Under the pieces are notes generated by a model. It searched no databases. It saw only the letters and a program-made list of their open reading frames with translations, and was not told where the DNA came from. Shown in pieces: positions 37,278 to 64,000 of a DNA stretch of 64,000 nt; the first letter of the stretch is position 1, and every line of letters begins with the position of its first letter. The stretch spans positions 6,419-70,418 of the forward strand of contig JBAUTZ010000310.1 of the NCBI GenBank assembly GCA_049582445.1, given 5' to 3'. The translations under genes and the position numbers were made by a program. The DNA is from Burkholderiales bacterium (GTDB taxonomy: Bacteria; Pseudomonadota; Gammaproteobacteria; Burkholderiales; SG8-39).

Positions 37278-38171
37278 CTAGTCGCCCTCGTGTTCCACGC
37301 GAAAGCGCAGCGTGTGCTCCCCGTGCTCGTTCGCGCTGTGCCCGAGCCCGATCCAGCCGCGCTCCCCGAGCACCGCCTCCTCCCGGCGCAGCATGATCTC
37401 CGCAGCTCCACCGTCGGGCAACAGGAAGGTCCCGTTGGAGGACTGGTCCGCGAGCAGGAAATGCCCGCCGCGCGCCACGATGCGGGCGTGAAAGCGCGAA
37501 GCGTAGTTGCTCTTCACCACCAGGTCGTTCGCCTTGTCGCGCCCCAGCCTGAGCGCCGCAGGGCGGTGCAGGACCGCCGTCGCGTCGCCGCCGTACGTCA
37601 GCTTCAGGACACGCTCACCCTGGCGCGGCCGCAGGACGTTCGCCAGGGTGAGATCGGGATCCGCGCGCCAAAGCACCTCGTAGGCGGTGACCTCCTCCAG
37701 CCTGCCCTTGACCCGGATCGGAAACAGCCTACGGCAGCGCTCCCGCAACGCGGGCTCGAGAGCCCCGCACGTCGGCTCGTTGGTCAGCACTTGCTCCGAA
37801 TTGGCGAGCGACGCGAGCCGCGCGCAGACGTTTACCGTGTCGCCGAACACGTCGCCATCCGCGAGAACCACCGGCCCGTAGGTAAACGCGATCTTGATGG
37901 TCAGCCTGTGCGGGCGATGGCGATCATGCGCCGCCACCGCCTCCTGCATGTCGCAGGCGACCCGCGCTGCGGCGCTGGCGTCGGCGAACATGCAGACGAT
38001 GCCATCGCCCAGGCTCTTGACCACCGTGCCCGCCTGGCGCACCACGACTTCGCCCAGGCGCCGCAGCAGCGGGTCGATCACCGCCAAGGCCTGCGCGTCG
38101 CCGAGCGATTCGTAGATTCTGGTGCTATCGGTAACGTCGGCAAAAAGTATCGCGCGCTCGACCTTCTCCAC
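37278..38171 (-). CDS. Class III adenylyl cyclase domain fused to a C-terminal FHA domain
   Basis: The cyclase motifs are FADVTDST, KSLGDG and GDTVNVCARL, with K...D specificity residues. The FHA motifs are LGR...SRFHA...NGTF. The start is set at GTG 38171, with a GGGAAGG RBS. Confidence 0.8.
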   Translation of the reverse strand: MEKVERAILFADVTDSTRIYESLGDAQALAVIDPLLRRLGEVVVRQAGTVVKSLGDGIVCMFADASAAARVACDMQEAVAAHDRHRPHRLTIKIAFTYGPVVLADGDVFGDTVNVCARLASLANSEQVLTNEPTCGALEPALRERCRRLFPIRVKGRLEEVTAYEVLWRADPDLTLANVLRPRQGERVLKLTYGGDATAVLHRPAALRLGRDKANDLVVKSNYASRFHARIVARGGHFLLADQSSNGTFLLPDGGAAEIMLRREEAVLGERGWIGLGHSANEHGEHTLRFRVEHEGD

Positions 38172-38236
38172 GCCGCCTTCCCGCTTGTGGCAAAGGCGCG
38201 ATTTTAGTCCACCCTCCGCGCGCGAGCCTGACTCGG

Positions 38237-38821
38237 CTATACGGCCAGCGGCGGCACGAGGTCTCCCGGCGCATCGATGTCGCGGATCACGCCGGGGTCG
38301 CCACACGGGATCTTGACCAGCAAGTTCTCGTGCTGCACGAGGACTCGGCGCGCGCCCTCGTCACCCGAAAGTGCCTCCAGCTCGGCGCGAAAGCGTCCCG
38401 CGATGCCGACGGGATGGCCACGCCTGCGGCGAAAGTACGGCGCCGCGAGCAGCGCGCCCGCTTCGAGAGCTTCTCGAACGGCGGCGATCGAACTGGGGCG
38501 CACGAAGGGCATGTCGGCCAATGCGACGATGTAGCCGCGCGCCTCCCCTGCGGCGCGGACCGCACAGGCCAGGCTGGCGCCCATGCCCTCGTCCGCGTTC
38601 GCGCACACGACCACGTCGCAGCCTTCCGCCGCGAGGCTGCGCGCGCGTTCCTCGGCGCCCGGGCGCACCACGGCGACCACGCGCGAGACCTGGCTCAGCA
38701 GGTGGCGGGCCGCCTGCACCGCCATCGGGACCCCGTGCGGCAGGCGATGTTGCAGCTTGTCCGACCCGAAGCGCGAAGCAGACCCGGCCGCCAGCAGCAG
38801 GCCGACGAAGTCCTGGCTCAA
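38237..38821 (-). CDS. mocA: MobA-like nucleotidyltransferase, probable molybdenum cofactor cytidylyltransferase MocA
   Basis: GLLLAAGSASRFG is a P-loop-like motif, and ALADMPFV is present. The provisional TTG start at 38821 overlaps the xdhC stop (TTGA). Confidence 0.7.
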   Translation of the reverse strand: MSQDFVGLLLAAGSASRFGSDKLQHRLPHGVPMAVQAARHLLSQVSRVVAVVRPGAEERARSLAAEGCDVVVCANADEGMGASLACAVRAAGEARGYIVALADMPFVRPSSIAAVREALEAGALLAAPYFRRRRGHPVGIAGRFRAELEALSGDEGARRVLVQHENLLVKIPCGDPGVIRDIDAPGDLVPPLAV

Positions 38822-39874: not shown

Positions 39875-41263
39875 TTATGCGGACAGGACCGGAAAAATCA
39901 AGGTCACTCTGCAGCCCTTTCCCGTGGTCGCCGGCTCGCCGATCTCGAGGCTGGCGCCATGCGATGCGGCGATCTCGCCTACGATCGCCAGCCCCAGCCC
40001 GCTGCCCGTGCCGAGGGTTCCCGGAACGCGGTAGAACCGCTGCAGCACGTGCGCGCGCTCTTCGGGCGGAATGCCTGGCCCGTCATCCTCGACCTCGAGG
40101 ATGGCCTGCGGACGACCCTCGGCCGCGCGCGTGCCCGTGCGCACCGTGACGTGGCCCCCGGACGGGGTGTACTCGAGCGCGTTGTGCACCAGGTTCGCGA
40201 GCGCCTCGCGCAACAGAAACTCGTTGCCCCGCGCGCGCGCCTCGCCGAGTTCGAAGCCCAGATCGATGTCCCGCGCCAAGGCGCGGTGAACCCACTCGTC
40301 GGCTACACCCTCGACGATGCGCCTGATATCGAGCGTCTGCATCCCTGCTTCGGGATTCCCTCCGGGCTCCGCGCGCGCCAGCGCGAGCAGCTGATTCGCA
40401 AGCCGCGCGGTCCTTATAGTCGCCAAGTGCACCTGCTCGAGCTCGGTGCGGCACCCCTCTGGTACCGGCTGTGCGAGGGCAAGCTCGGTATGCGCTTGCA
40501 GTCCGGCAAGCGGCGTGCGCAACTGGTGCGCCGCGTTGGCCAGGAACCGCTGCTGGTTGTTGTTCGCTTCCGCCACCCGCCCGAAGAGGTCGTTCAGCGC
40601 GCCAACGAGCGGTTTCGCTTCCTCGGGTGCGTGTTCGACTTCGATCGGCCGCAGGTCCCGCGGCGAGCGTTCCTTGATCTGCTCGGAGAGCCGGGCGAGC
40701 GGCGTCAGCCCGCGCTTTACGCCGAACCACACGATCACCAGTGTGGCGACCGCGATCAGCAAGGTCGGCACCAGGCTGGAAAGCACGATGTCGCGCACGA
40801 GGCGCCTGCGCTTGACGGTGGTCTCGGCGACCTGGACGGTGCATACCTTTCCCTCGCAGGGGACGAGCACGCCAACCACCCGCACGGGGCGGTCCATGTA
40901 ACGGTCGTCATAGGCAATGACGCCTTCCTTGGGCACGGCCTTCGGAGGCGGTGGCGCCAGACCCGGATCCCCCCCTACGGGCGTGCCGTCCGGCGCCAGC
41001 ACGCGGAAGTAGATCTGGTCGCGGCGGTCGGTGCGCAGCACCCGCTCAGCCGCAACGGGCAAGTCCAGAGCGTAGACACCATTTTCCAGCCGGATGCGCT
41101 CGCCGAGCGCCAGGCCGATATCGATCAGGGCTTGGTCATAAGCCGCCCTGGCAGGGCCAATTACCGGGTAGTAAGCGATCACTGCGCCCGCGGCCAAGAG
41201 CGCAGAGATCGGCGGCAGCAGCCGCCGCAGCAGTTGAACTCGAAGACTTCGGCCGGTGGTCAC
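39875..41263 (-). CDS. Sensor histidine kinase with a TctE/QseC-like periplasmic N-terminal domain
   Basis: The start is set at GTG 41263, 1 nt after the response-regulator stop. There are two TM segments, the H-box NAAHQLRTPL, the G1 motif DDGPGIP and the G2 motif GSGLGLAIV. Confidence 0.85.
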   Translation of the reverse strand: MTTGRSLRVQLLRRLLPPISALLAAGAVIAYYPVIGPARAAYDQALIDIGLALGERIRLENGVYALDLPVAAERVLRTDRRDQIYFRVLAPDGTPVGGDPGLAPPPPKAVPKEGVIAYDDRYMDRPVRVVGVLVPCEGKVCTVQVAETTVKRRRLVRDIVLSSLVPTLLIAVATLVIVWFGVKRGLTPLARLSEQIKERSPRDLRPIEVEHAPEEAKPLVGALNDLFGRVAEANNNQQRFLANAAHQLRTPLAGLQAHTELALAQPVPEGCRTELEQVHLATIRTARLANQLLALARAEPGGNPEAGMQTLDIRRIVEGVADEWVHRALARDIDLGFELGEARARGNEFLLREALANLVHNALEYTPSGGHVTVRTGTRAAEGRPQAILEVEDDGPGIPPEERAHVLQRFYRVPGTLGTGSGLGLAIVGEIAASHGASLEIGEPATTGKGCRVTLIFPVLSA

Positions 41264-41264
41264 G

Positions 41265-41939
41265 TCAAGGCCCCACGAAATCCTCGAGCATGTAGCCGAA
41301 CCCGCGGACGGTCCGGACGCGGATCCCGGCGGGCTCGAGCTTCGCGCGCAGGCGCGACAGGTAGACCTCGATCGCGTTGGGCGAGAGCTCCTCGCCCCAG
41401 CTTGCGACCGCCTGGATGATCGATTCCTTCGAGACGACGCGCTCGACGTTGGCGAGCAATACCTCGAGTACTGCCCATTCGCGCGCGGCCAGGTCGAGCG
41501 GCGCACCCCCGAGGTAGGCGCGGCGCGCTACGGTATCGAGGACCAGCGGCCCGTGCACGACCTTCGGTCCAGCCTGCGACTGGCTGCGGCGAATCAGGGC
41601 ACGGACGCGTGCTGCAAGCTCGGGCATTGCGAATGGCTTGGCAACGTAGTCGTCGCCACCGATGTCTAGCCCGCGCACCCGGTCGTCGGTCGCGTCGCGC
41701 GCCGTGAGCAGCAATACCGGGACGCGGTTGGGCGCGGCGCGAAGACGGCGCAGCGCCTCGAAACCATCGATGCCAGGCAAGCCCACGTCGAGGATGACGA
41801 GGTCGAAGCGCTCCTGCTTCGCCGCGAGAACCGCCTGCTCACCGCTCCTCACGGAGTCGACCGCGTAGCCCTCCGACTCAAGGATGCGGGTCAGGCCACT
41901 GACGAGAACGGGATCATCCTCGACGATCAGGATGCGCAT
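41265..41939 (-). CDS. OmpR/PhoB-family response regulator (TctD-like), copy 1
   Basis: The REC domain has VEDD...DLVILD...LLLTA...KPF, followed by a winged-helix domain (VRGFGYML). Confidence 0.9.
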   Translation of the reverse strand: MRILIVEDDPVLVSGLTRILESEGYAVDSVRSGEQAVLAAKQERFDLVILDVGLPGIDGFEALRRLRAAPNRVPVLLLTARDATDDRVRGLDIGGDDYVAKPFAMPELAARVRALIRRSQSQAGPKVVHGPLVLDTVARRAYLGGAPLDLAAREWAVLEVLLANVERVVSKESIIQAVASWGEELSPNAIEVYLSRLRAKLEPAGIRVRTVRGFGYMLEDFVGP

Positions 41940-42008: not shown

Positions 42009-42764
42009 TCAGGCGGCCTTGCGGCTGGGATACTCCAGCAGCATGTAACCGAAGCCGCGAACCGTGCGAATGCGGATGCCGCCCGGTTCGAGCTTGGCCC
42101 GCAGGCGCGAAACGTAGACCTCGATCGCGTTCAGCGACAAGTCGTCGCTCACCCCCGCGACCGCCTCGATAATCGCTTCCTTCGATACCGTGCGCTCGAT
42201 GCGCTCGAGCAGCACCATCAGCACCGACCATTCGCGGGCGGCCATTTCCAGGGGCTGCCCGCTTAGCCACGCTCGCCTCGCGTTGGTGTCGAGCGTCAGC
42301 GGCCCGTGCACGATGCGCGGCCCGGTCTGTCCACGGCCGCGCCGTCCTAGTGCACGAACGCGCGCCGCCAGCTCGGGCAAGGCGAACGGCTTGGGCATAT
42401 AGTCGTCGGCGCCGAGGTCCAGTCCGCGTACCCGGTCATCGACCGCGTCGCGCGCCGTGAGGATCAGCACCGGTTGCGCGTGTCCGGCCGCGCGCATGCG
42501 CTTCAGGACCTCGAAGCCGTCGATTCCCGGCAGGCCAATGTCCAGCACCATCAGGTCGAAACGCTCGGCGGAAATGCGGCCGAGAGCCTCCTCACCGTTG
42601 CCCGTGGCGGCCACCTCGTAGCCCTGGTTGACGAGCGCGCGCGACAATCCTGCGGCGAGCGACGCGTCATCCTCCACGAGCAGCAGGCGCACTGGCGCGG
42701 GACCTTGGGGAGAGGGCGGCACGCCAGACGCTTCAGGGGCATGATTGACCTGCGCATGATTCAT
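42009..42764 (-). CDS. OmpR/PhoB-family response regulator, copy 2 (paralogue of copy 1 with a 27-aa N-terminal extension)
   Basis: It has the same architecture as copy 1. My hand alignment gives about 145/219 identical residues. GAGGAG RBS 6 nt before the ATG. Confidence 0.9.
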   Translation of the reverse strand: MNHAQVNHAPEASGVPPSPQGPAPVRLLLVEDDASLAAGLSRALVNQGYEVAATGNGEEALGRISAERFDLMVLDIGLPGIDGFEVLKRMRAAGHAQPVLILTARDAVDDRVRGLDLGADDYMPKPFALPELAARVRALGRRGRGQTGPRIVHGPLTLDTNARRAWLSGQPLEMAAREWSVLMVLLERIERTVSKEAIIEAVAGVSDDLSLNAIEVYVSRLRAKLEPGGIRIRTVRGFGYMLLEYPSRKAA

Positions 42765-51661: not shown

Positions 51662-52291
51662 ATGGGAGACATGGCAATGTCCGCGTTGAGGAAGCGCGAG
51701 CGCGTCGCGACGGAACGGCGCGAGGCGGTCATCCTGTTCGCCGAGCTGCGCAACTTCACTCGCGTGTCCGAAATGCTCCCGCCGGAAAAGGTGCTGGCCC
51801 TCGCCAGCCAGTTCTTCGCTCTCGTCGCCACGGCAGTCGAGGAGAACGGGGGCGAGTTGCTCGCCGTGCACAACGACGAGCAGATGGCGATGTTTCGCAG
51901 CGGAGACATGGGCGAGGATGCGCGGCGGGCCGTCCTGGCGGCGCAGCGGGTTCAGCGTGAGTTCGGTACGCTCGCCGAGACATGGGAGCAGGAATACGGC
52001 CTGCGCGCCGCGGTAGCCATGGGCCTGCACCTAGGCGAAGCGGTGTTCGGAATGGCGGGCCCGACGGGAGCAGAACAATACGTCGCGTTCGGTGACTGCG
52101 TCAGCATCGCCGAGAGGCTGGTTCACCGCGCTCGTGCAGGCGAGTTCGTCTTCTCGCAGGCGCTGATGGACGCGCTATCCGCCTCGGGTATGGAGATCGA
52201 CGCGTCGAAACTTCCCGTCCTCGATCTGGCGCGACGCGAACGAATCGAAATCTACGGCGTCCTGCTCGACACGCGGCTCGATTTCACCTGA
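51662..52291 (+). CDS. Stand-alone class III nucleotide cyclase homology domain with divergent catalytic residues
   Basis: By-eye alignment gives FAELRNFT (metal Asp replaced by Glu), HNDEQMAMF (second Asp kept, specificity Lys absent) and GDCVSIAERL (Asn replaced by Ser, Arg kept). Confidence 0.7.
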   Translation: MGDMAMSALRKRERVATERREAVILFAELRNFTRVSEMLPPEKVLALASQFFALVATAVEENGGELLAVHNDEQMAMFRSGDMGEDARRAVLAAQRVQREFGTLAETWEQEYGLRAAVAMGLHLGEAVFGMAGPTGAEQYVAFGDCVSIAERLVHRARAGEFVFSQALMDALSASGMEIDASKLPVLDLARRERIEIYGVLLDTRLDFT

Positions 52292-53291: not shown

Positions 53292-54659
53292 TCAGTCCCC
53301 CGCGATCGTCATGTTGTCGACGAGAATCGAGCCCGACCGGCGGGCGCCGCGCACCACGAGGTCTCCGCCGATCGCGGCAATGCCACGCAGCATCTCCTTG
53401 AGATTTCCGGCGATCGTGATTTCCTCGACTGGATAGCGGATCTCTCCGCCCTCGACCCAGTATCCGGCCGCGCCGCGCGAATAGTCTCCGGTAATGAGGT
53501 TGACGCCCTGACCCATCAGTTCCGTCACCAGGAGCCCGGTACCCAGCACCTTCAGCATGCCGACGAAGTCCGGCGCCGGTCCGCGGCCAACCTGGCGCAC
53601 GCTGAGGTTGTGATGCCCGCCCGCGCTACCCGTGCTCTGCAGGCCGAGCTTGCGCGCCGAATAGCAGCCGAGAAAATACCCTTGCAGCACCCCTTCGCGC
53701 ACGACCAGCCGCGGCCGCGTCGCGACGCCTTCCTCGTCGAACGGCGAGCTGGCGAGCGCCTGGCGCTCGAGCGGCTCCTCCTCGATCGTGACGATCGGCG
53801 AAAACACCTGCTTACCGAGGCTGTCGACGAGGAACGACGCCTTGCGGTACAAGTTGCCTCCGCTCGCCGCGGACACGAACGCGCCGATGAGCTGTGTCGC
53901 GACCGGTGCCTCGAACAGCACCGGGGCCTTGCGCGTGGTGATCTTGCGTGCGCCAAGTCGGGCCAGCGCACGCTCACCCGCGTAGCGTCCCAGCGCGACG
54001 GCGTCCGCGAGCCTGCCCGGCACGCGCGCGGCGCTGTACCAGTCGTCTCGCTGCATGAAGCCCTTGTCTTCCGCGATCACCGAGCACCAGAGTGAATGGC
54101 GCGATGTCGGGAATCCGCTCATGAACCCCAGGCTGTTCGCAAGAACGAACTGCGAGTGCTGCGAGCTGAGCGATGCACCCTCGGAATTCTTCAGCTTGGG
54201 CGACAGGGCAAACGCCGCTGCCTCGCACCGACGCGCGGTCTCGATGGCCTGCTCCGTCGTCAGGTCCCACGGATGGAACAGGTCCAGATTGGGGAACTCG
54301 CGTGCGAGCAAGTTGGGCTCGGGAGGGCCGGCGCAGTCGTCCTCCGCCGTATGGCGCGCGATCGCGAGCGCCGCCGCGACGGTTTGCTCCAGCGCTGCGG
54401 CGGAAAAATCCGACGTGCTGGCATGTCCCCTCCGCGCATGCGGGCGTTCGCCGAGGTATACGGTCACGCCGATGCCCTTGTCGCGATTGTGCTCCAGCGT
54501 GTCGACGTTTCCCTTGCGCACCGTAACGGAAAGTCCATAGCCCTCCGATACGTCGCATTCGCAGGCGTTCGCTCCCAGACGGACGGCATGCGCCAGCACG
54601 ACCGAGGCGAAGTCTCGCAACTGTCCGGCCGAGTACGTGAAGCGGTGCGACTTGGACAT
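53292..54659 (-). CDS. pmbA: Metalloprotease PmbA (TldE)
   Basis: 455 aa of the PmbA/TldD family along its full length (for example GHHNLSV and YWVEGGEIRYPVEEITIAGN). Confidence 0.9.
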   Translation of the reverse strand: MSKSHRFTYSAGQLRDFASVVLAHAVRLGANACECDVSEGYGLSVTVRKGNVDTLEHNRDKGIGVTVYLGERPHARRGHASTSDFSAAALEQTVAAALAIARHTAEDDCAGPPEPNLLAREFPNLDLFHPWDLTTEQAIETARRCEAAAFALSPKLKNSEGASLSSQHSQFVLANSLGFMSGFPTSRHSLWCSVIAEDKGFMQRDDWYSAARVPGRLADAVALGRYAGERALARLGARKITTRKAPVLFEAPVATQLIGAFVSAASGGNLYRKASFLVDSLGKQVFSPIVTIEEEPLERQALASSPFDEEGVATRPRLVVREGVLQGYFLGCYSARKLGLQSTGSAGGHHNLSVRQVGRGPAPDFVGMLKVLGTGLLVTELMGQGVNLITGDYSRGAAGYWVEGGEIRYPVEEITIAGNLKEMLRGIAAIGGDLVVRGARRSGSILVDNMTIAGD

Positions 54660-54681
54660 GGCGCGTTATCATAACAGCGCG

Positions 54682-55200
54682 ATGCAGGACGACCTCGAAT
54701 TCAGCAAGACGAAGCGCAAGCAGGCGATGCACGAGCTGCAGGCGCTCGGAACCGCTCTTGTCGCGCTCTCCGAAGGGCAGCTCGAGTCGCTGGAGCTGCC
54801 TGACGAGCTCGCCAGCGCCGTCGCGGAAGCCCGGCGGATCTCGAGCCGCGAAGGCCGCCGACGCCAGTTGCAGTACATCGGCAGGCTCATGCGGGACCTT
54901 GACCCGGCGCCGATCCGTGCGCAGCTCGATCGCCTTGCCGGTCGCTCGGCGGAGGACAGTGCACGGCATCGGCGGGTCGAGCATTGGCGTGCGCGCTTGC
55001 TCGAGGACGATGCGGCCCTCACCGAGTTCGCGAGCGAGCACCCCGCCGTGGACCTGCAGGCTCTGCGCGCGCTGATCCGCAACGCGCGTCGAGAACAAAA
55101 GGAAGGCCGCCCGCCACGCGCCTTCCGCGAAATCTACCGCGTGTTGCGCGAGGCGAGCGCGTCGCCCGCGGTCGATAGCAACTCGGAAACGTCGGCCTAA
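54682..55200 (+). CDS. yjgA: Ribosome-associated protein YjgA (DUF615)
   Basis: SKTKRKQAMHELQALG and GRRRQLQYIGRLMR are typical YjgA motifs, and the gene is divergent from pmbA as in many proteobacteria. The start is set at ATG 54682. Confidence 0.8.
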   Translation: MQDDLEFSKTKRKQAMHELQALGTALVALSEGQLESLELPDELASAVAEARRISSREGRRRQLQYIGRLMRDLDPAPIRAQLDRLAGRSAEDSARHRRVEHWRARLLEDDAALTEFASEHPAVDLQALRALIRNARREQKEGRPPRAFREIYRVLREASASPAVDSNSETSA

Positions 55201-55266
55201 TGGGTTCGTGCATTGATCGTAGGGGCGAACCTGTCCATGGACGCGGCTAGCGAAGGGGGCACACTC

Positions 55267-55719
55267 ATGCTGCAGCTCGAGCCGCTGTTTCGCGCCGAGA
55301 TCACGCTTGCACGAGCGCAGGACCTCGGCGAAACGCCGATGGGCCGCAGGCGCATCATTCCGATTACGGGCGGAACCTTTTCCGGGGCGCGGCTCTCGGG
55401 CAAGGTGCTGCCCGGCGGCGCAGACTGGCAGGTGATCCGCCCGGACGGAGTGGCGTACCTGGATGCCCGCTACAGCATCGAGACCGCCGACGGCGCGCTG
55501 GTCTATGTACGCAATCGCGGCTACCGTCATGGCCCGCCCGAAGTGTTGGCCCGCCTTGCCCGCGGCGAGGCCGTCGACCCTGCGCTGTACTACATGCGCA
55601 CCACGCCATGGTTCGAGACCGGCGACGCGCGCTACGCCTGGCTCAACCGCACCGTCTGCGTGGGCAGCGGAATGCGGCTCGCATCGGCCGTGCGGATCGA
55701 TTTCTACGCCGTAAAATGA
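55267..55719 (+). CDS. DUF3237 (UPF0311) family protein
   Basis: GRRRIIPITGGTFSG...GADWQ is the hallmark of the family. ATG 55267 is preceded by GAAGGGGG. Confidence 0.7.
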   Translation: MLQLEPLFRAEITLARAQDLGETPMGRRRIIPITGGTFSGARLSGKVLPGGADWQVIRPDGVAYLDARYSIETADGALVYVRNRGYRHGPPEVLARLARGEAVDPALYYMRTTPWFETGDARYAWLNRTVCVGSGMRLASAVRIDFYAVK

Positions 55720-55723
55720 CTTT

Positions 55724-56320
55724 ATGACGGATATGGAACAGCTCGTGGTGGGGCTGGTGTCGATCAGCGACCGAGCCTCGACGGGCGTCTACCAGGACGA
55801 GGGTCTGCCCGCGCTCAGGGACTGGCTCGCCGGCGCGATCGCATCGCCCGCCTTGCGCGACGAGACACGGCTGATCGCGGACGAGCAGCCGGTCATCGAG
55901 GCGACGCTGAAAGAGCTGGTCGACCGGAAGGGCTGTCACCTCGTGCTAACCACCGGCGGCACCGGGCCCGCGAAGCGCGACGTCACGCCGGAGGCGACGC
56001 TCGCGGTAGCGGACAAGGTGATGCCCGGCTTCGGCGAGCAGATGCGTCAGATCAGCCTGCAGTTCGTGCCGACCGCGATCCTTTCCCGGCAGGTCGCGGT
56101 GATCCGGAAGCAGGCGTTGATCATCAACTTGCCGGGGCAGCCCAAGTCGATCAAGGAGACGCTCGAAGGACTCAAGGACGACGCGGGAAGGCAGATCGTC
56201 CATGGCATCTTCGCGGCGGTGCCCTATTGCATCGACCTGATCGGCGGACCTTATATCGAGACCCGCGAAGCGGTCGTAAAGGCATTTCGCCCAAAGTCCG
56301 CCGTCCGCCCCAAGCCCTGA
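55724..56320 (+). CDS. mogA: Molybdopterin adenylyltransferase MogA
   Basis: It is near-colinear with E. coli MogA (GLVSISDRAS.GVYQD, LVLTTGGTGPA.RDVTP, GFGEQMRQISL.FVPTAILSRQ). Confidence 0.9.
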   Translation: MTDMEQLVVGLVSISDRASTGVYQDEGLPALRDWLAGAIASPALRDETRLIADEQPVIEATLKELVDRKGCHLVLTTGGTGPAKRDVTPEATLAVADKVMPGFGEQMRQISLQFVPTAILSRQVAVIRKQALIINLPGQPKSIKETLEGLKDDAGRQIVHGIFAAVPYCIDLIGGPYIETREAVVKAFRPKSAVRPKP

Positions 56321-56794
56321 TCAGCCGCGCCCGACCTGGCTCTGATCGATGGTTTCCATCGCTCGGCGCCTGAAGTCGAGCGGCGAGTCGATGTTCTGGA
56401 TCGGGGTCTTGCCACCACCGGTGCCGTTGACGATCAGGGTTCCGAAATCGAAGATCCTGCCGAATATGCCCTGGTCGACGTTGAAGCTCTCCACCTTGCT
56501 GTGATTGAGCTCGACGGTGTGGCGCATGATGAGGCCCGTCTTGGCGATGACGCGCTTCGAAGTCACTGCCAGCTCGGTGGCAATCTTGACCACCAGCGCC
56601 TTGAGCAGCCACCAGAGCGCGACGAGCAGCGCGATACCGCCGAGAATCGGCCCGATGCCATGCGGCAGCGTCAAGGCGCATAGCACAAGCCCGAGCACGA
56701 AGAGCGCTGCGCCTGGAACGAAGATGAACCAGTGAATCTTCGCCTGGTAGACGATCTGCTCGCCCGGCATCAGATTGCCGCTTACGTATCCCAT
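56321..56794 (-). CDS. Membrane protein with a bacterial PH (bPH_2/YdbS-like) domain
   Basis: GEQIVYQAKIHW is followed by two TM helices and then a PH-like beta region. Confidence 0.7.
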   Translation of the reverse strand: MGYVSGNLMPGEQIVYQAKIHWFIFVPGAALFVLGLVLCALTLPHGIGPILGGIALLVALWWLLKALVVKIATELAVTSKRVIAKTGLIMRHTVELNHSKVESFNVDQGIFGRIFDFGTLIVNGTGGGKTPIQNIDSPLDFRRRAMETIDQSQVGRG

Positions 56795-56832
56795 CCGGTT
56801 CCCCTTTCGCCCATCCTATCGAAGACCTGGAA

Positions 56833-57633
56833 TCAACGCGTCGTGGCGGTGAGACCACCGTCGACCACGATCTCGGCGCCGGTGACGTACCTGGCCTCGT
56901 CGGAGGCGAGGTACAGCGCCGCCCATGCCACGTCCCAGGCATCGCCCATGCGTCCCATCGGAGGGCGCGCATGGCGCCGCGCGACGAGCGCCGCGGCGTC
57001 GCCCCCGGCCTGCTGGTGCGCGAGCCGCGCAGCTACCAGCGGCGTGTTCATGAGCCCGGGAATGACGGTGTTCACCCGCACGCCGTGCGGCGCATAGCGA
57101 ACCGCCGCCACGCGCGAGAAGTGCTGCAGCCCCGCTTTCGATGCAGCGTAGGCGGCGAGTTCGTTGCCGAGGTGACGCAGCCCCGCGATCGACGACAGAT
57201 TGACGATCGACCCGCCCCCCTGCTTCACCATCAGCGGCGCCACCATGCGGATCGAAAGGTAGACGTAGTGCAGATTGTGATGAAATTGCGCGTGCCAGTC
57301 CTCGGGCGCGATCTCCTCGGGTCCCCCGGGGATGCTGCCGCCGACGTTGTTCACCAGTACATCGAGGCGCCCGAATCTCTCGACGGTGGCATCGATCACC
57401 CGCCGCAGGTCTTCCTCCTTCGTCACGTCGGCGGCAAGCACCAGCATCGCTTTGCCTTCGGAGGCGACCAGCCGCGCGGTTTCTTCGGCAGCCGCGAGGC
57501 TCACGTCGACCCCCGCCAGCTTCGCCCCCTCTCGTGCGAACAACACGCAGATCGCGCGACCGTTGCCCACGCCCTGGCCCACCGAGCCCGCGCCCAACAC
57601 CAGCGCCACCTTGCCTTTCAGTCTATCTGCCAT
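56833..57633 (-). CDS. Short-chain dehydrogenase/reductase (SDR)
   Basis: The Rossmann motif resembles TGxxxGxG (VLGAGSVGQGVG), NNVG is present, and the catalytic YxxxK is YAASK. Confidence 0.9.
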   Translation of the reverse strand: MADRLKGKVALVLGAGSVGQGVGNGRAICVLFAREGAKLAGVDVSLAAAEETARLVASEGKAMLVLAADVTKEEDLRRVIDATVERFGRLDVLVNNVGGSIPGGPEEIAPEDWHAQFHHNLHYVYLSIRMVAPLMVKQGGGSIVNLSSIAGLRHLGNELAAYAASKAGLQHFSRVAAVRYAPHGVRVNTVIPGLMNTPLVAARLAHQQAGGDAAALVARRHARPPMGRMGDAWDVAWAALYLASDEARYVTGAEIVVDGGLTATTR

Positions 57634-57648
57634 CTAGCCTAAACCCCG

Positions 57649-57996
57649 TTATCTGGATCCACGTTCCCAGTGAAACTTGTGCATGAGGCGATGCATCAGC
57701 GGCGCGAACAGGATGCCCGCGGCGATCAGGAACACCAGGCCCGCGTAGAGCGCGTAGCAGCCGGCGAACAGCTTGCCAGCGTCGGTGCGCGGCGCATCGA
57801 CCGGGCCCATGCCGCCGAGCAGCATCGCCGCATTGAGAAATGCGTCACGCCAGGCGAGACGTTCAAAATGCATGTAGCCCGCCATGCCGATCGCGAGCGA
57901 CCACGCCAGGAGCGCCAGCACAGCGGCGACGTGACGGAATACGCGCCGTGCGAACTGGGGGCCCGGCAGCGGTGGATGCATGCTCGATTCGTACAC
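57649..57996 (-). CDS. Small 2-TM membrane protein with K-channel-like pore topology and a non-canonical filter
   Basis: The layout is TM1, then WRDAFLNAAMLLGGMGP, then TM2. This parallels the KcsA layout W.S.ETATTVGYGD. The call is based on pattern only. Confidence 0.5.
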   Translation of the reverse strand: MYESSMHPPLPGPQFARRVFRHVAAVLALLAWSLAIGMAGYMHFERLAWRDAFLNAAMLLGGMGPVDAPRTDAGKLFAGCYALYAGLVFLIAAGILFAPLMHRLMHKFHWERGSR

Positions 57997-58095
57997 CTCC
58001 CTACTCCTTTAACGCGGATGATACGCGCCCACGCGCCGCCTCATTGCCTAAGGCGATGGCGCTTGGCACAATGCAACTAGGCGCCTCACTTGTCC

Positions 58096-59349
58096 ATGCA
58101 CTTCCTCATCGTCGACGAGTCTCCCGAGCTCCGCACCGCGCTCGGCATCATGCTGTGCACACGCTGGCTGGACGCGGACATCGACCTGTACGATCCCTCC
58201 GAGCGCGACGCACTGCGCGCGTCCCTCGCCAAAGGCGGGATCTCCGCGTTGCTGCTGCAGGCGCCGTTCCCCGGCGAGGACGTGGTGGCGCTGGTCCGCT
58301 CGATCTGCAAAGACCCGAAGGCGCCGCCGGTGCTTCTGCTCACCGACAAAGGCAGCGAAGAACTGGCGGTGCGCGGGATGAAGGCGGGAGCGACGGATTT
58401 CCTGCCGCGGCAGGGCCTCACCGCCCCGCTGTTGGGCCGCCTGGTCGAGGATGCGCTGCAGGAGCATGACGCTCATATGCGGATCGCGGCGGAAACGACG
58501 GTGCACCAGAAGGCCACTACCGTGCCCATGGACACCAACACGCTTCGCGCCGCCGCGCGCGGCGGCGAGCAGCCGGTGGCCGGCTACCGAATTCTCGGCC
58601 AGATCGGCGAAGGTGGCATGTCGCGCGTTTACCTCGCCGAGCGCGAACACGATGGGCTCGAGCTGGTGCTCAAGCTGCTCGACCCCGCGTTGTGGGAGGA
58701 CAAGACCTTCCTGCAGCGCTTCGTGCAGGAGTACAAGATCGTCGCGGGCATGCAGAATGAGTATGTCGCGCGTATCTACGACCAGGGATTCGCGGCCAGG
58801 CACCCGTTCATTGCGATGGAGTACTTCCCGGGCGGACACCTCAGGGCCAAAATGCAGGCCGGAATCTCGCCCGTTGAAGCGGCTCGCATCACCTCGCAGA
58901 TTGCCCGCGCGCTCGATGCAATCCACGGCCACAACATCGTGCACCGTGACCTCAAGCCGCAGAACATCCTGTTCCGCGCGGACGGACGTCCCGCAATCGT
59001 CGATTTCGGATTGGCCAAGGACCTTCTGGCGGACGCCGACCTGACGCGCGAAGGCGTGGTGTTCGCCACGGCGCGATACATGAGCCCGGAGCAGTGCCTG
59101 AGGCTGCCGGTCGACGCGCGTTCTGATCTTTACAGCCTGGGAGCGGTCTTCTACGAGATGCTGACCGGCAAGAAGCTGTACGAGGAGTACTCCGACGCCG
59201 ACCTCATGCGGATGCACGTCTCCGGGCCACTGCCCAAGCTTCCTCCCGCGATCGCCGGCTTCCAGCCCGTGCTCGACCGCTTGCTCGCCAAGAGACCCGA
59301 GCACCGATACCAGAGCGCGCGGGAGCTGTTCGCCGTCATCGCCGTATGA
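58096..59349 (+). CDS. Pseudo-receiver (REC-like) domain fused to a Hanks-type Ser/Thr protein kinase
   Basis: The kinase motifs are [26 protein letters not shown] and SPEQ. The N-terminal REC-like fold has Gln (58258..58260) where the phospho-acceptor Asp is expected, and Arg in place of the conserved Lys. Confidence 0.85.
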
Positions 59350-60158
59350 ATTTCAATGCGGGCGAGCAGCAGTATCTCGACCTCCTGGGCGAGTTGCTGG
59401 AGCACGGCGCGAGCAAGACCGATCGCACCGGGACCGGGACCTTGTCGGTATTCGGGCGTCAGATGCGCTTCGACCTCGAACGAGGCTTCCCTCTGCTCAC
59501 CACCAAGAAGCTTCATTTTAAGTCGATCATCTACGAGCTGCTCTGGTTCCTGCGCGGCGACACCAACGTCGGATGGCTGCGAGAACATGGCGTTACCATC
59601 TGGGACGAGTGGGCCGACGCCCAAGGCGAGCTGGGTCCGGTGTACGGTTACCAGTGGCGGCACTGGCGCACCCCGGATGGCCGCGAAATCGACCAGATCG
59701 CGCAGGTGGTTGAATCGATCCGGAACCGTCCCGATTCCCGGCGCCACATCGTAACCGCGTGGAACCCCGCCGACGTCGGCAGGATGGCGCTGCCACCGTG
59801 CCACGCGATGTTCCAGTTCTACGTCGCTCAGGGGCGGCTGTCATGCCAGATGTACCAGCGGAGCGCCGACATGTTTCTCGGCGTGCCGTTCAACATCGCG
59901 TCGTATTCGCTGCTGACGCTGATGATCTCCCAAGTAGCGGACCTCGCGCCTGGCGAATTCGTGCTGACGCTGGGCGACGCGCACCTGTATCTCAACCACC
60001 TAGACCAGGCGCGCGAGCAACTGGCGCGCGCACCCAGGCCGTTCCCGCGCATGCGGCTTGATCCATCGGTGCGCGAACTGTTCGCGTTCGGCTACCAGCA
60101 CTTCGCTCTGGAGGGCTACAACCCTCACCCCGCGATCAAGGCGCCGATCGCGGTCTAA
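59346..60158 (+). CDS. thyA: Thymidylate synthase
   Basis: [12 protein letters not shown] and the catalytic Cys region ALPPCH are present. The junction with the kinase gene is an ATGA overlap. Confidence 0.95.
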
Positions 60159-60177
60159 GACCAACGAGGAGTCCGCG

Positions 60178-60567
60178 ATGAGCGTCGACAGTCACAAGAA
60201 GTCAGAGTGGGTGTTCAACCTGAAGGACGATGCCCGGGGGATCCAGCGCAAGCTCGGAGAAGGCATCGTCACGCGAATCTTCCCGGGAGAGCAGGCGATG
60301 CTCTCCGTGGTACGCATCGCACCCCACGCAATTGGCACGGTGCACAGCCATCCGCAGGAGCAATGGGGCGTGCTGCTCGAGGGCCGCTGCGTGCGCATAC
60401 AGGGCGGCGAGGAAATTGAAATGCAGGCGGGCGACTTCTGGCACACACCGGGAGGCGTCGAACATGGCATCCGCACCGGCGCTGAGGGCGCCGTGGTGCT
60501 CGATATTTTCAGCCCGCCGCGCGACGAATATCGCAAGACCGGGGAGGGATTCGGCATTGCGCGATGA
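60178..60567 (+). CDS. Cupin-domain protein
   Basis: HSHPQEQWGVLLEG and PGGVEHG are the cupin_2 motifs. GAGGAG RBS. Confidence 0.8.
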   Translation: MSVDSHKKSEWVFNLKDDARGIQRKLGEGIVTRIFPGEQAMLSVVRIAPHAIGTVHSHPQEQWGVLLEGRCVRIQGGEEIEMQAGDFWHTPGGVEHGIRTGAEGAVVLDIFSPPRDEYRKTGEGFGIAR

Positions 60568-60577
60568 GCCCGCGCCG

Positions 60578-61276
60578 ATGAGTGATTCGGAGGACGTCCG
60601 CCTCGCCGTTTTCGACTTCGGCGGCACGCTGATCCACGACACGGCCGACGTTTCGGCGATCTTCAAGGCGGCGCTCGCCCAGCATGGCCTGGAGGTGGAC
60701 GATGGGCGGCTGGTTGCCTTGCGCGGAGCGGCGAAGCGCGAAGCGATCGCCCGGCTCGCCGCCGGATCTGAAGCCGATCCGGAGCGGATCTACGCCACGT
60801 TTCGCGAGCTACTGGTTGCCGCCTTCGCCGGACAGGGGGTGCGCACGATCGACGGCGTGGAGCAGGCGCTCGATCGCCTCAGGAAGCGCGGCCTGCGCCT
60901 GGCCCTCACCACCGGATTTGATCGAGTGGTCACGGAATGGCTGCTCGCGCGACTTCCCTGGGCTACATTGATCCACGCGGTGGTATGCGCCGACGAGGTC
61001 GCCGTCGGGCGGCCGGCGCCCTACATGGTCTTTCGCGCGATGGAAAAAACCCGTGTCGAGGACGTGCGGCAGGTGGCCAACGTCGGCGATACCGACAACG
61101 ACCTGATGGCCGGACAGCGCGCCGGCATCGGGACGAACGTCGGCGTACTGAGCGGCGCGCACGACCGCGCGCGTCTCGAAAAGGTGCCGCATACCGTGTT
61201 GCTCGGGAGCGCCGCCGAGCTGCCGGATTGGCTCGAACGAAATGCGGGCGCCGAAAAAAAGAAGGCCCGCCGTTAG
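60578..61276 (+). CDS. HAD-superfamily hydrolase (subfamily IA, phosphonatase-like)
   Basis: AVFDFGGTL is motif I, TTG is motif II and GDTDNDLMAG is motif IV. An alternative TTG start lies at 60557. Confidence 0.8.
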   Translation: MSDSEDVRLAVFDFGGTLIHDTADVSAIFKAALAQHGLEVDDGRLVALRGAAKREAIARLAAGSEADPERIYATFRELLVAAFAGQGVRTIDGVEQALDRLRKRGLRLALTTGFDRVVTEWLLARLPWATLIHAVVCADEVAVGRPAPYMVFRAMEKTRVEDVRQVANVGDTDNDLMAGQRAGIGTNVGVLSGAHDRARLEKVPHTVLLGSAAELPDWLERNAGAEKKKARR

Positions 61277-61292
61277 GGGGAAGTGGCGGGCC
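61254..61292 (-). terminator. Rho-independent terminator of the 61361..61693 gene, overlapping the 3' end of the convergent HAD gene
   Basis: On the minus strand, GGCCCGCC-N13-GGCGGGCC is followed by TTCTTTTTTT. Confidence 0.6.
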
Positions 61293-61360
61293 CAGGGGAG
61301 ATATTTCAGCAGTGTTCGTGGTCGGCGATCCCTCCAGTCAGTCGATGAATCGGTTCGTTT

Positions 61361-61693
61361 CTAGAACGTGCCGCCGGTGGCCATTCGCACCATGAAGAGG
61401 AGACCTGCCGCGGCGAACGAATAAAGCACCAGGTCGGCGATACGATTCTCCTCTGCAGGCGAGGCCCAATCGCGCGCGAACCAGCCCATGACGCCAATGA
61501 ACAGCACAGAAGCCATCGCCGCAGCTCCGACCGACGCGTCCGAGCCCAGCGCGCGTGCGATCCATCCATCCGGCGCGGCGATCTTGAAGATCGAGCCGCA
61601 CACGCCGAGCACCACCAGCGCAAGCAGCCAGAAACCGCCGAGAGTGCGCAGAAGTAAGCTTGTGTCCTTCAACTGCTTGATGTCTTGCAGCAT
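61361..61693 (-). CDS. Hypothetical small membrane protein (3 predicted TM segments)
   Basis: A strong GGAGGAGG RBS precedes the ATG at 61693. There are three hydrophobic segments and a downstream terminator. I recognise no family. Confidence 0.6.
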   Translation of the reverse strand: MLQDIKQLKDTSLLLRTLGGFWLLALVVLGVCGSIFKIAAPDGWIARALGSDASVGAAAMASVLFIGVMGWFARDWASPAEENRIADLVLYSFAAAGLLFMVRMATGGTF

Positions 61694-61940
61694 GATCCTC
61701 CTCCGGTCGGTGATCGCTCTGACAGTTGCTCACCTTTCTGCAATGACCGTGCCACGAACAAATAGACTTTATTGTTCAGCGAGATGAAGCGACATCGTGA
61801 AAAAATTCGCATGCGCAGAAACGCGTCGAAACGTCTGCCAACGGCGACGAAAGAAGTCACAGTCCGGCGATGTAATTGATGCGTCGGGAGTTTCGCTGTC
61901 GTGCAGGGGCGACAGAAGCGACGCGCGATAACATCGCAGC

Positions 61941-62933
61941 ATGAAGCTCTCCGTTCTCGATCAGTCACCGATCATCGGCAATCTCGGCGCGCGCCGCGCG
62001 CTGGAGGAAACGCTCGCGCTCGCTCAGCGCGCCGATGCGCTCGGCTACGAGCGCTACTGGCTCGCCGAACATCACGCGATCGGCGCCCTGGCCGACCCGT
62101 GTCCCGAAGTGCTGCTGGCGCGCCTTGGGGCCGAGACCCGGCGTATGCGCGTCGGGACCGGCGGTGTGCTGCTGCCGTACTACAGCGCATTCAGGACCGC
62201 TGAGGCCTTCCGCATGCTCGAGGCCCTGTATCCGGGGCGCATCGATCTCGGAATCGGGCGCGCGCCCGGCGGTGACACGCGCACCGCACAGGCCGTCGGC
62301 GGCGGCCAGCCGCCGGATGCGCGCAACTTTCCGGAACAGGTCTGGCAGCTGGTTGGCCATCTCGACGGGACGCTGCCCGATGACCATCCGTTCCGCCACC
62401 TGCGCGTACAACCGGAGGTCGACACGTCCCCGCAGGTGTGGCTGCTCGGATCGTCCGACTACAGCGGCGCACTCGCGGCGCAGCTCGGGCTGCGCTTTGC
62501 CTTCGCGCATTTCATCAATCCGCACGGCGGTGACGAGGTTACCCGCGCCTACCGGCTGCAGTACCGCACCTCGCAGCGGGAACCGCAGCCGCAAGCAATC
62601 GTGTGCACCTTCGCCATCTGCGCCGAATCGGACGAGCGGGCCGAGCAACTCGCCGCGTCGATCGACCTGAGGCGGCTGCACATGGCCCTCAACTTAGACA
62701 CGCCGGTGCCGACCCTCGAGGAGGCGCAGCGCCACGTGTACAGCGACGAGCAGCGCCGATACGTCATGGCGCAGCGCGCCCGCGCGGTCATCGGCAGCCC
62801 CGAAAAATGCCGGCGCGAGATCCAGGCGCTCGCGGAGCGATATGCGGCCGACGAAGTAATGGTGCTGACGATCACGGGCGACTACGCTTCGCGCCTTCGC
62901 TCCTACGAGCTGCTCGCCGAGGAATTGCTCTAG
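61941..62933 (+). CDS. LLM-class flavin-dependent oxidoreductase (luciferase-like monooxygenase, YhbW-like)
   Basis: MKLSVLDQSP...GYERYWLAEHH is the typical N terminus of this family. Confidence 0.85.
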   Translation: MKLSVLDQSPIIGNLGARRALEETLALAQRADALGYERYWLAEHHAIGALADPCPEVLLARLGAETRRMRVGTGGVLLPYYSAFRTAEAFRMLEALYPGRIDLGIGRAPGGDTRTAQAVGGGQPPDARNFPEQVWQLVGHLDGTLPDDHPFRHLRVQPEVDTSPQVWLLGSSDYSGALAAQLGLRFAFAHFINPHGGDEVTRAYRLQYRTSQREPQPQAIVCTFAICAESDERAEQLAASIDLRRLHMALNLDTPVPTLEEAQRHVYSDEQRRYVMAQRARAVIGSPEKCRREIQALAERYAADEVMVLTITGDYASRLRSYELLAEELL

Positions 62934-63652
62934 TGGGTACTTAGCGGGGGTCGGCGCGGATCGTCGATGTCGAGCGTCTCGAAGTTGCTCTTGGGCTCCT
63001 CGGTCACCGGCGCCTCGAGCAACTTGACGATCTCGTCCTGGCCGCGTGCTCTGGCGTAGTCCGCCGCCGTGAGCCCCTTGCGGTTCTTGGCCTGCGGCTG
63101 GTCTGTCACTGGCAGCAGTATCTTGACGACGCCCAGAAAGCCACCGTCAGCCGCGCCGTGCAGGGGCAGGTTGCCATGGATGTCCGCGACGTTCGGGTCC
63201 GCGCCTGCGGCGAGCAGCGCCTGCACGGTAGCCGCATTGCCGCTCAACGCCGCCCAATAGAGCACCGATTCGCCGTCGTCGTTGCGCGCCTTCGGATCCG
63301 CACGCGCAGCGAGCAGCAGCTCGACGAAGCGCGGATCCGATTGCAGCGCCGCGAGATGCAGGGCCGTTTCGCCGTGGTTCGAGCGCGCCTTGACGCTCGC
63401 ATCCGCCTTGAGCAGCACGCGAATCAGCTCCTTCATTCCCTTCTCGACGGCGTGGTGCAGCGGCGTCTCGCCGTTCGCGTCGCGGGCGTTGACGTCGGCT
63501 TTGCCTCGAAGGACGAGTCCCTCGGCATACACTTCCTTGTCCTCGTCGATCGCGGAAAAGAGCGATACGCCGGGCGGCGGGTCGGCCGCCGGCTGCGCCG
63601 CCACCGCAGGAAGCGCCACCAGGAGAACGAGCGCCAGCGCCCAGGCTTGCAT
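62930..63652 (-). CDS. Secreted ankyrin-repeat protein
   Basis: The signal peptide is MQAWALALVLLVALPAVAA. About 5 ANK repeats follow (G.TPLH.A......v..LL..GAD.NA pattern). Confidence 0.85.
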   Translation of the reverse strand: MQAWALALVLLVALPAVAAQPAADPPPGVSLFSAIDEDKEVYAEGLVLRGKADVNARDANGETPLHHAVEKGMKELIRVLLKADASVKARSNHGETALHLAALQSDPRFVELLLAARADPKARNDDGESVLYWAALSGNAATVQALLAAGADPNVADIHGNLPLHGAADGGFLGVVKILLPVTDQPQAKNRKGLTAADYARARGQDEIVKLLEAPVTEEPKSNFETLDIDDPRRPPLSTH

Positions 63653-63662
63653 GGGCTGAATT

Positions 63663-64000
63663 TTACCGGCCGAGGGCGCGCGCCAGCAGCTGCGCCAAGT
63701 GCAGCGTCTCGCGTCCCGAGAGGTCCTCGACCTGCTCGCGGCAGGAGAAGCCATCGGCGACGACGCTCACCCCGGGGCCGGCGGCGCGCAGCGCCGGCAA
63801 CAGGGCCAGCTCGGCGATGCGGCGCGAAGCATCGTAGTGCTGCGGCTTGAAGCCGAAGGAACCCGACATGCCGCAGCAGCCGCTATCGGGCGCCGCCACC
63901 TCCAGCCCCGCCTCGCGCAGGAGGCCCAGCTCGGCCGAGATGCCACCGAGCGACTTCTGGTGGCAATGGCCGTGCAGCAGCGCGCGCCCGCCAATCGCCG
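63663..64000 (-). CDS. C-terminal CCG (cysteine-rich) domain of an FAD/Fe-S oxidoreductase (GlcF/YdiJ-like); the 5' part lies outside the window
   Basis: LLHGHCHQKS...PDSGCCGMSGSFG is the CCG-domain pattern, and the frame stays open to the window edge. Confidence 0.65.
   Translation of the reverse strand, partial: AIGGRALLHGHCHQKSLGGISAELGLLREAGLEVAAPDSGCCGMSGSFGFKPQHYDASRRIAELALLPALRAAGPGVSVVADGFSCREQVEDLSGRETLHLAQLLARALGR

Follow-up and report, generated by a model that had tools for sequence, protein, structure and literature searches.

The DNA analysed here, called the window throughout, is a stretch of 64,000 nucleotides (G+C 65%) from a Burkholderiales bacterium. Its plus strand carries a gene for a protein in which an N-terminal receiver (REC) domain with a degenerate phosphorylation site is joined to a Hanks-type Ser/Thr kinase domain, and this gene overlaps thyA, the gene for thymidylate synthase, which follows it directly. 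The features of the locus, with the evidence on which each was assigned, are as follows; AF2 is AlphaFold2 and pLDDT its predicted local distance difference test score.

58096..59349, plus strand: gene for a 417-aa protein made up of a pseudo-receiver, a linker and a Hanks-type Ser/Thr kinase domain (open reading frame; Pfam Response_reg and Pkinase)
59346..59349, plus strand: ATGA stop/start overlap, the kinase TGA at 59347-59349 with the thyA ATG at 59346-59348 (sequence)
59346..60158, plus strand: thyA, thymidylate synthase, 270 aa (PF00303, NF002497)
58096..58497, plus strand: receiver-fold domain, residues 1-134 (phmmer to PDB sequences, AF2, Foldseek)
58258..58260, plus strand: CAG codon of Gln55, at the phospho-acceptor position (sequence and alignments)
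58408..58410, plus strand: codon of Arg105, which replaces the conserved receiver Lys ('DFLPRQ' versus 'DFLEKP' in FixJ)
58483..58566, plus strand: disordered inter-domain linker, about residues 130-157 (AF2 pLDDT <50 over 130-157)
58585..59346, plus strand: PknB-like kinase domain, residues 164-417 (Pfam, Foldseek)
57997..58095, no strand assigned: 99-nt divergent intergenic region, predicted to hold the kinase-thyA promoter (gene layout)

Kinase and thyA as one unit

The start of the kinase gene was placed at ATG 58096 because the family consensus opens with MRFLIVDES; the mechanical open reading frame (ORF) opens earlier, at TTG 58090. The third-position G+C (GC3) of 0.86 and the codon-position G+C pattern are those of a real gene, and the product is identical to the database protein P0001, recorded as a protein kinase from a Burkholderiales bacterium metagenome-assembled genome (MAG). 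The product of thyA matched Pfam PF00303 (Thymidylat_synt) over its full length with 409 bits and the NCBIfam equivalog NF002497 with 464 bits (cutoff 327). The ATGA overlap described in the first-pass annotation of this DNA was confirmed, with the kinase stop at 59347-59349 and the thyA start at 59346. At this junction the sole match resembling a Shine-Dalgarno (SD) sequence was GGAG, about 20 nt upstream of the thyA ATG and too distant to act as an SD, and consensus and Rfam scans found no promoter, terminator or Rfam element between kinase and thyA.

Genomes were scanned for related loci using one genome per species, which gave 48 loci from records titled Burkholderiales or Betaproteobacteria bacterium, a few of the titles being evidently mislabelled. 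Junctions were compared in a set of 48 in which the window was counted and L037, whose contig stops at the kinase stop codon, was left out. An (A/G)TGA overlap was present at 41 of these 48 junctions, the other seven ranging from an 11-nt overlap to a 10-nt gap, and in 44 of the 48 loci the 24 nt upstream of the junction contained no SD-like motif. Because thyA has no SD, its translation would fall to ribosomes that have just finished the kinase ORF; we propose that kinase and thyA are co-transcribed and that thyA is translated by termination-reinitiation at the (A/G)TGA overlap.

A second scan, of metagenome sequence, was seeded with ThyA instead of the kinase. Where ThyA was at least 78% identical and enough flank was present, a kinase or its remnant lay upstream in 13 of 13 loci; five further kinase-linked loci were found at 74-77% ThyA identity, for a total of 18. 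In the kinase-less metagenome loci (n = 50) ThyA identity was 65.4-77.6%, overlapping the kinase-linked group at about 74-78%, and folA usually came immediately after thyA. The synteny next to thyA, first noted in the window, was thus kept in all 46 informative genome loci, where thyA is directly downstream of the kinase, and in 18 metagenome loci. On these scans the kinase family is confined to one clade of uncultured Burkholderiales/Betaproteobacteria, and the nearest ThyA relatives beyond this clade have no kinase.

The wider gene order, mog - esterase - kinase - thyA ... folA, is also inherited. Gene insertions were seen between esterase and kinase and between thyA and folA, never between kinase and thyA. 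In the window clade three minus-strand genes stand in place of the esterase gene, and cupin and HAD genes follow thyA. The thyA-folA adjacency usual in kinase-less loci (L106, L107, L109 and others) is lost in the kinase-linked clade (L005-L017 and the window), where about 270 nt to over 4 kb separate the two genes; in eight loci an NtrC-like regulator, a lipoprotein and a histidine kinase (HK) are inserted there on the opposite strand. As judged from gene order, the conserved unit is the kinase with thyA, not the receiver, and what is new here is a clade-wide, apparently translationally coupled kinase-thyA unit.

The kinase domain matched Pfam Pkinase (PF00069) over residues 164-405 with 144.1 bits against a gathering score of 31.7. 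The N lobe contains the G-loop GEGGMS (171-176), K193 and E212, and the catalytic region and C lobe contain HRDLKPQN (283-290, with HRD at 283-285 and N290), DFG (303-305), SPE (330-332) and R404; Thr317 and Thr325 are candidate activation-loop residues, and the loop at 310-323 was modelled with low AF2 confidence. The best NCBIfam model was that of the PASTA-kinase Stk1/PknB family, matched over the kinase domain only and far under the equivalog cutoff. The best Foldseek neighbours of the full-length model were Mycobacterium tuberculosis PknB and PknA and Staphylococcus aureus PknB/Stk1, with 30-34% identity to PknB-type structures and a template modelling (TM) score of 0.85 on the target (1o6y, E 2.6e-19; 5u94, E ~1e-19). 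An assignment as a small-molecule kinase of the APH kind was rejected, since the catalytic and SPE motifs and the PknB fold are those of a protein kinase; the weak Pfam matches to APH, ABC1 and Kdo are the usual cross-matches inside the kinase clan. Beyond REC and Pkinase, Pfam found no additional domain in the 417-aa protein, and the Kyte-Doolittle maximum of 1.35 (19-residue window) indicates no transmembrane segment, so that the earlier description of a soluble Hanks kinase with all catalytic motifs holds. The whole catalytic set (G-loop, K193, E212, HRD, N290, DFG, T317, T325, SPE, R404) is invariant in 47 of 48 loci, comprising 19 of 19 with the REC-type protein and 28 of 29 with the short form. 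As predicted from these conserved residues, the kinase is apparently active and under selection.

Upstream of the kinase gene, a consensus scan of 57997..58095 found no sigma-70-like site and Rfam gave no match; no Rfam family matched within 54000-64000 at E up to 0.1. A 115-aa hydrophobic ORF with gene-like codon bias and no Pfam match is encoded on the minus strand (window 57649-57996), with the SDR gene on one side and the kinase gene on the other. The same sequence occurs in L081; L082, the ortholog locus of 86% identity, does not have it.

The receiver domain and its variation across the family

The N-terminal domain matched Pfam Response_reg (PF00072) over residues 4-104 with 32.6 bits, just over the gathering score of 30.2, and residues 3-133 weakly matched the NCBIfam models of FixJ, OmpR and MtrA. 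When PDB sequences were searched with phmmer, residues 2-124 aligned with full-length FixJ and with the receivers of CpxR, RstA and PhoB. AF2 modelling of residues 1-135 with 80 family sequences gave a pLDDT of 92.3, a predicted TM score (pTM) of 0.87 and the order β1-α1-β2-α2-β3-α3-β4-α4-β5-α5, with strands at 2-6 (β1), 28-32 (β2), 51-56 (β3), 79-83 (β4) and 101-104 (β5). A Foldseek search of the PDB with this model returned receivers only (FixJ, PhoP, DgcR, CpxR, PleD, NtrX and others) at TM scores of 0.7-0.83.

In the phmmer alignments Gln55 was aligned to the acceptor Asp of FixJ, CpxR and RstA ('vvsDvrmPG' versus 'lllQapfpg'), and Arg105 to the conserved Lys ('GAVDFLEKP' versus 'GATDFLPRQ'). 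The AF2 model placed Gln55 at the C-terminal end of β3, Thr83 at the end of β4 and Arg105 just past β5. Among the residues expected of a phosphorylatable response regulator, the acceptor Asp and the conserved Lys are thus absent, and the acidic pair D7-E8, the Thr T83 at the end of β4 and the aromatic switch F102 are retained. By published definitions (PMC4395418, PMC12632262) a domain with this sequence is an aspartate-less receiver (ALR) or pseudo-receiver, and established receiver chemistry together with Q55 and R105 means that classical His-Asp phosphotransfer should not be possible for it. The first-pass annotation had proposed, by eye, a receiver fold, Gln at the acceptor position (codon 58258..58260), Arg in place of the conserved Lys and a domain closed to classical phosphorylation. 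Each of these points stands: the profile alignments restored no Asp at the acceptor position, and the region adopts the (βα)5 receiver fold by Pfam, AF2 and Foldseek. The conserved Thr is residue 83 and not 84.

A Pfam scan of the window proteins found no HK within about 16 kb of the kinase gene. The nearest, at 39875-41506 on the minus strand (2CSK_N, HisKA, HATPase_c), forms its own pair with an OmpR-type response regulator at 42009-42764 on the same strand, and these are the sole two-component genes among the scanned proteins. The NtrC-like regulator and HK found between thyA and folA in eight REC-type loci are absent from the window clade. This neighbouring two-component system was rejected as a source of a cognate HK; its presence does not correlate with Asp at the acceptor, D, Y, F and G being represented alike.

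Variation within the family was examined in the 120 best database relatives, all of about 416 aa and of the same architecture. The acceptor column contained D in 71, Y in 17, E in 9, S in 9, Q in 6, V in 4, A in 2, and G and T in one each; the Lys column contained K in 83 and R in 34, the Thr column A in 61, T in 44 and S in 15, and the complete canonical quintet was kept in only about 23 of the 120. Only six members have Gln at the acceptor position, the window protein and the five nearest to it (82-100% identity), and all 15 members with a Q or S acceptor have Arg at the Lys position. The acceptors of 19 genome-derived members were D (7), Y (3), E (3), Q (3), G (2) and F (1). Away from the active site the receiver keeps about 30 invariant or near-invariant residues, among them W24-P25, W32, P34, G38 and P40 on the α1-β2-α2 side and K96-AGAxDFL103 in α4-β5, and therefore the fold and some surfaces appear to be constrained and the phosphorylation site not.

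The receiver is also optional. Only 18 of the 48 genome loci carry it; in 28 the gene encodes a bare kinase of about 265 aa that starts about 10 residues before the conserved PGY, and a count by hidden Markov model (HMM) put the bare kinases without a REC match at 29. In a neighbour-joining tree of the kinase domains the REC clade stood apart from the REC-less clade, and two loci nested inside the REC clade have lost the domain in part or in whole. In L025 (2024-2929) an in-frame deletion has removed the receiver and linker and joined 'LMVDESSAFRS' to the kinase domain, so that this form converges on the REC-less sister form, and in L038 (1912-3003) two in-frame deletions took most of the receiver, the linker and the Gly-rich loop. 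The pseudo-receiver is therefore not the defining feature: across the family the acceptor varies, the sister clade lacks the domain and two lineages deleted it secondarily. These comparisons indicate that the receiver is an accessory module of one sub-clade, in which Asp phosphorylation was lost many times and sometimes the whole domain deleted. Also new here, on the same comparisons, is one orthologous family that spans a near-canonical receiver, a pseudo-receiver and no receiver.

The more distant kinases retrieved from other phyla (L049-L080) included no REC-kinase fusion. In three Acidobacteria loci (Blastocatellia; L052, L064, L080) a receiver-containing gene of about 460 aa lies directly upstream of a Hanks kinase gene on the same strand.

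The range of acceptors bears on whether the domain is a working phospho-switch of a non-classical kind, in which the fused kinase or some other kinase phosphorylates the receiver on a Ser, Thr or Tyr, or another pocket Asp (D7) takes the phosphate, and the kinase is gated in this way. Y, S or T is found at the acceptor position in 27 of the 120 members, such residues make up 12% of aspartate-less receivers and are possible kinase targets (PMC4395418), and the window protein keeps D7, E8, T83 and F102. The window acceptor, however, is Gln, which is not phosphorylatable, the V, A, G and F acceptors of other members have the look of relaxed constraint, and the REC-less sister clade and the secondary deletions indicate that the kinase-thyA unit works without a receiver; we consider this explanation very improbable. 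Somewhat less improbable, though still unlikely, is that in the window lineage the receiver is a functionless relic, decaying towards deletion. In the neighbour-joining tree the window clade has a long branch, its protein departs from the near-invariant family residues R2, P25, W32, G38 and P40, and there are the deleted or eroded receivers of L025 and L038 and the sister clade without one. Against decay, the domain still folds confidently (AF2 pLDDT 92), its frame is intact with 75-85% identity among the six closest relatives, and the α4-β5 motif K96-AGAxDFL is kept, features that are consistent with purifying selection.

Evidence on a possible functional link with ThyA

The explanation of the locus as a whole that we consider fairly probable is a soluble PknB-type kinase that carries a pseudo-receiver and is encoded in a coupled unit with thyA. 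The kinase would be active and would autophosphorylate its activation loop, with the invariant Thr317 as candidate site, as in PknB-type RD kinases. The pseudo-receiver would act without phosphorylation, most likely by dimerising through the conserved α4-β5-α5 face (K96-AGAxDFL103) and so bringing the kinase domains together; docking, which the first-pass annotation had named beside dimerisation, would be an alternative role. The kinase may tune the supply of thymidylate or DNA precursors, with ThyA as prime candidate substrate or binding partner, a proposal that we hold tentatively and would sooner expect to fail than to hold.

A more specific form of this proposal is that the kinase is dedicated, is made in fixed proportion with ThyA and acts by binding or phosphorylation on ThyA itself, or on a closely linked dTMP or replication factor, thereby throttling precursor supply; in one sub-clade the receiver-derived module would add a phosphorylation-independent input. 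This form seems to us rather unlikely. Since reinitiation cannot exceed upstream translation, the kinase should be made at least as often as ThyA, and because such an output suits a stoichiometric partner more than a signalling enzyme present in traces, a minor share of our belief is kept on direct control of ThyA or dTMP.

The coupling can also be read as a frozen operon, in which kinase and ThyA are unrelated in function and the clade ancestor lost the promoter and ribosome-binding site of thyA, which has since depended on translation of the ORF that happened to lie upstream. A break at the junction would then kill an essential gene, and the targets of the kinase would lie elsewhere, unrelated to thymidylate. 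This is a serious contender, to which we give somewhat less than an even chance. It has a parallel in Escherichia coli, where thyA is coupled to the unrelated gene lgt, in the account given in PMC8316002, and in view of that precedent the overlap alone is no proof of a functional link. The first-pass annotation had called the kinase-thyA partnership unusual: the pairing is real and clade-wide, and the inference from overlap to function does not follow. The wider synteny mog-esterase-kinase-thyA is vertically inherited, as the frozen operon would have it, and since mog and the esterase gene are conserved as neighbours too, part of the kinase-thyA adjacency is ordinary vertical synteny. However, the catalytic residues of the kinase are invariant in nearly all loci, so the kinase ORF is more than a translated leader; the coupling would have the kinase made at least as often as a housekeeping enzyme, which is odd for a catalytic signalling kinase and would suit a stoichiometric partner better; and the kinase-thyA pair was kept while both flanks were repeatedly rearranged.

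Several further observations weigh against a functional link, and some of them are what the frozen operon predicts. A damaged kinase stands beside an intact thyA in three loci: the eroded L038, L086 (415-1713), where an in-frame stop follows about 50 kinase residues, and L091 (2606-2986), where only a 127-aa C-lobe remnant is left. In at least some lineages ThyA would therefore function without the kinase, unless these are assembly errors, and in all three the 3′ end of the kinase ORF is retained and still abuts thyA, as expected if thyA is locked in translationally. The geometry between the domains is uncertain as well, the full-length AF2 model having a pTM of 0.60, and therefore the dimerising role given to the receiver has no structural support from it.

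The ThyA sequences were compared between the two groups of loci. At residues 104-114 (window 59655-59687) kinase-linked ThyA reads QWRHWRT-P(D/E)G(R/G)EIDQ, versus QWRSWP(T/A)-PDGxxIDQ in kinase-less loci. Nine residues are clade-specific, three of them clustered in this surface loop (S106H, P108R, x114E); further residues common to the kinase-linked group are R38, M169, L207 and F233. They are not strictly tied to the kinase, since L147 combines a kinase with the kinase-less motif, and because the kinase-linked group is essentially one clade they may be plain synapomorphies.

Fusions of the two proteins were sought by searching 5.8 billion proteins with a concatenated kinase-domain and ThyA query, and no credible kinase-ThyA fusion was found among them. 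Three proteins with both Pfam domains (P0121, P0122, P0123) were rejected as fusions: they are singletons with three different internal junctions, each missing ThyA residues 1 to about 65-75, from a source without a contig on record, and are read as assembly chimeras. A fourth, P0129, was rejected as a frameshifted read-through on a long contig. Likewise, no literature was found that connects Ser/Thr kinases with bacterial ThyA or thymidylate synthase. The lack of credible fusions and of such literature fits the frozen operon.

Among the ThyA relatives, P0195, P0220 and P0230 are predicted fusions of other kinds, DHFR-ThyA (PF00186 with PF00303; 445 and 420 aa) and, in one, PF02567 with PF00303 (456 aa).

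An FHA-cyclase suggested at first as a substrate of the kinase was not sustained as a candidate: it lies 20 kb from the kinase gene, and only the general affinity of FHA domains for phosphothreonine connects the two. This gene (37278-38306, minus strand) encodes 342 aa; Pfam places a class III nucleotidyl cyclase domain first and an FHA domain at the C terminus. A stand-alone class III cyclase catalytic domain of 209 aa is encoded at 51662-52291 on the plus strand, a position kept in L082 (622-1236).

Comparison with known systems and significance

Aspartate-less receivers are common, and a survey reports their enrichment when attached to Ser-Thr kinase/phosphatase modules (Maule et al., 2015; PMC4395418); therefore the combination of REC and kinase domains is of an already known kind. 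A review of pseudo-receivers (J Bacteriol 2025; PMC12632262) describes phosphorylation-independent dimerisation and new surfaces, for example α1-β2-α2. Like these domains, the window receiver has a fold recognised by PF00072, lacks the acceptor Asp and has its Lys changed too, and the kinase family conserves W24, W32, P34, G38 and P40 on the α1-β2-α2 side. Unlike in characterised ALRs, the acceptor position holds at least nine residue types within one orthologous family, in which the domain was gained, lost and eroded, and none of the characterised ALRs is attached to a kinase locked to thyA.

With PknB/PknA and Stk1 the window kinase shares the RD type, all catalytic motifs and the activation-loop Thr, at the identity and TM score given above. 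It differs in being cytosolic, without a transmembrane helix and without PASTA or another extracellular sensor, and in its N terminus, which is a pseudo-receiver or, in the sister clade, nothing. PknB is activated by dimerisation.

The closest counterpart of the junction is E. coli lgt(umpA)-thyA; PMC8316002, which cites Gan et al. (1995), describes a thyA there that is driven by the lgt promoter and coupled to lgt in translation. Both systems have an overlapping stop and start and a thyA without expression signals of its own; they differ in that the upstream gene here encodes a signalling kinase, not a lipoprotein-maturation enzyme, and in that the arrangement is of independent origin in another lineage.

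A precedent for a Hanks kinase that phosphorylates an enzyme of nucleotide synthesis is Stk1-PurA, cited in PMC2884019, where the effect is strain-dependent. Stk1 is a pleiotropic membrane sensor that is not encoded beside its target, whereas the candidate target ThyA belongs to the same translational unit as the kinase, its phosphorylation being putative.

Fungal Rim15 is a Greatwall-like kinase with a pseudo-receiver (PMC8510515, PMC12632262). Like the window protein it joins a Ser/Thr kinase to a receiver-like domain without a conventional phospho-acceptor; unlike it, Rim15 is eukaryotic, belongs to an unrelated kinase family and has no link to thymidylate. The Rim15 receiver is C-terminal.

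De novo synthesis of dTMP (thymidine monophosphate) depends on thymidylate synthase alone, which is also a classic drug target, and to our knowledge the bacterial enzyme is considered to have essentially no post-translational regulation. A kinase that throughout a clade is inherited with thyA and, as proposed, shares one transcriptional and translational unit with it is a concrete lead for such regulation of ThyA; if it is real, this would be the first case in bacteria of a Hanks kinase directly controlling thymidylate synthase, with both proteins encoded in one translational unit. If the connection with ThyA is only that of a frozen operon, the finding shrinks to an ordinary ALR-kinase. The family is also a natural experiment in the loss of Asp phosphorylation by a receiver with the same output domain and genomic context, spanning members with a canonical-looking acceptor, others with Glu, Gln, Tyr, Ser, Val or Gly in its place, partly deleted receivers and kinases that have none left. 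For the organisms themselves, the kinase-thyA pairing hints at a link between protein phosphorylation and DNA-precursor synthesis in uncultured soil Burkholderiales.

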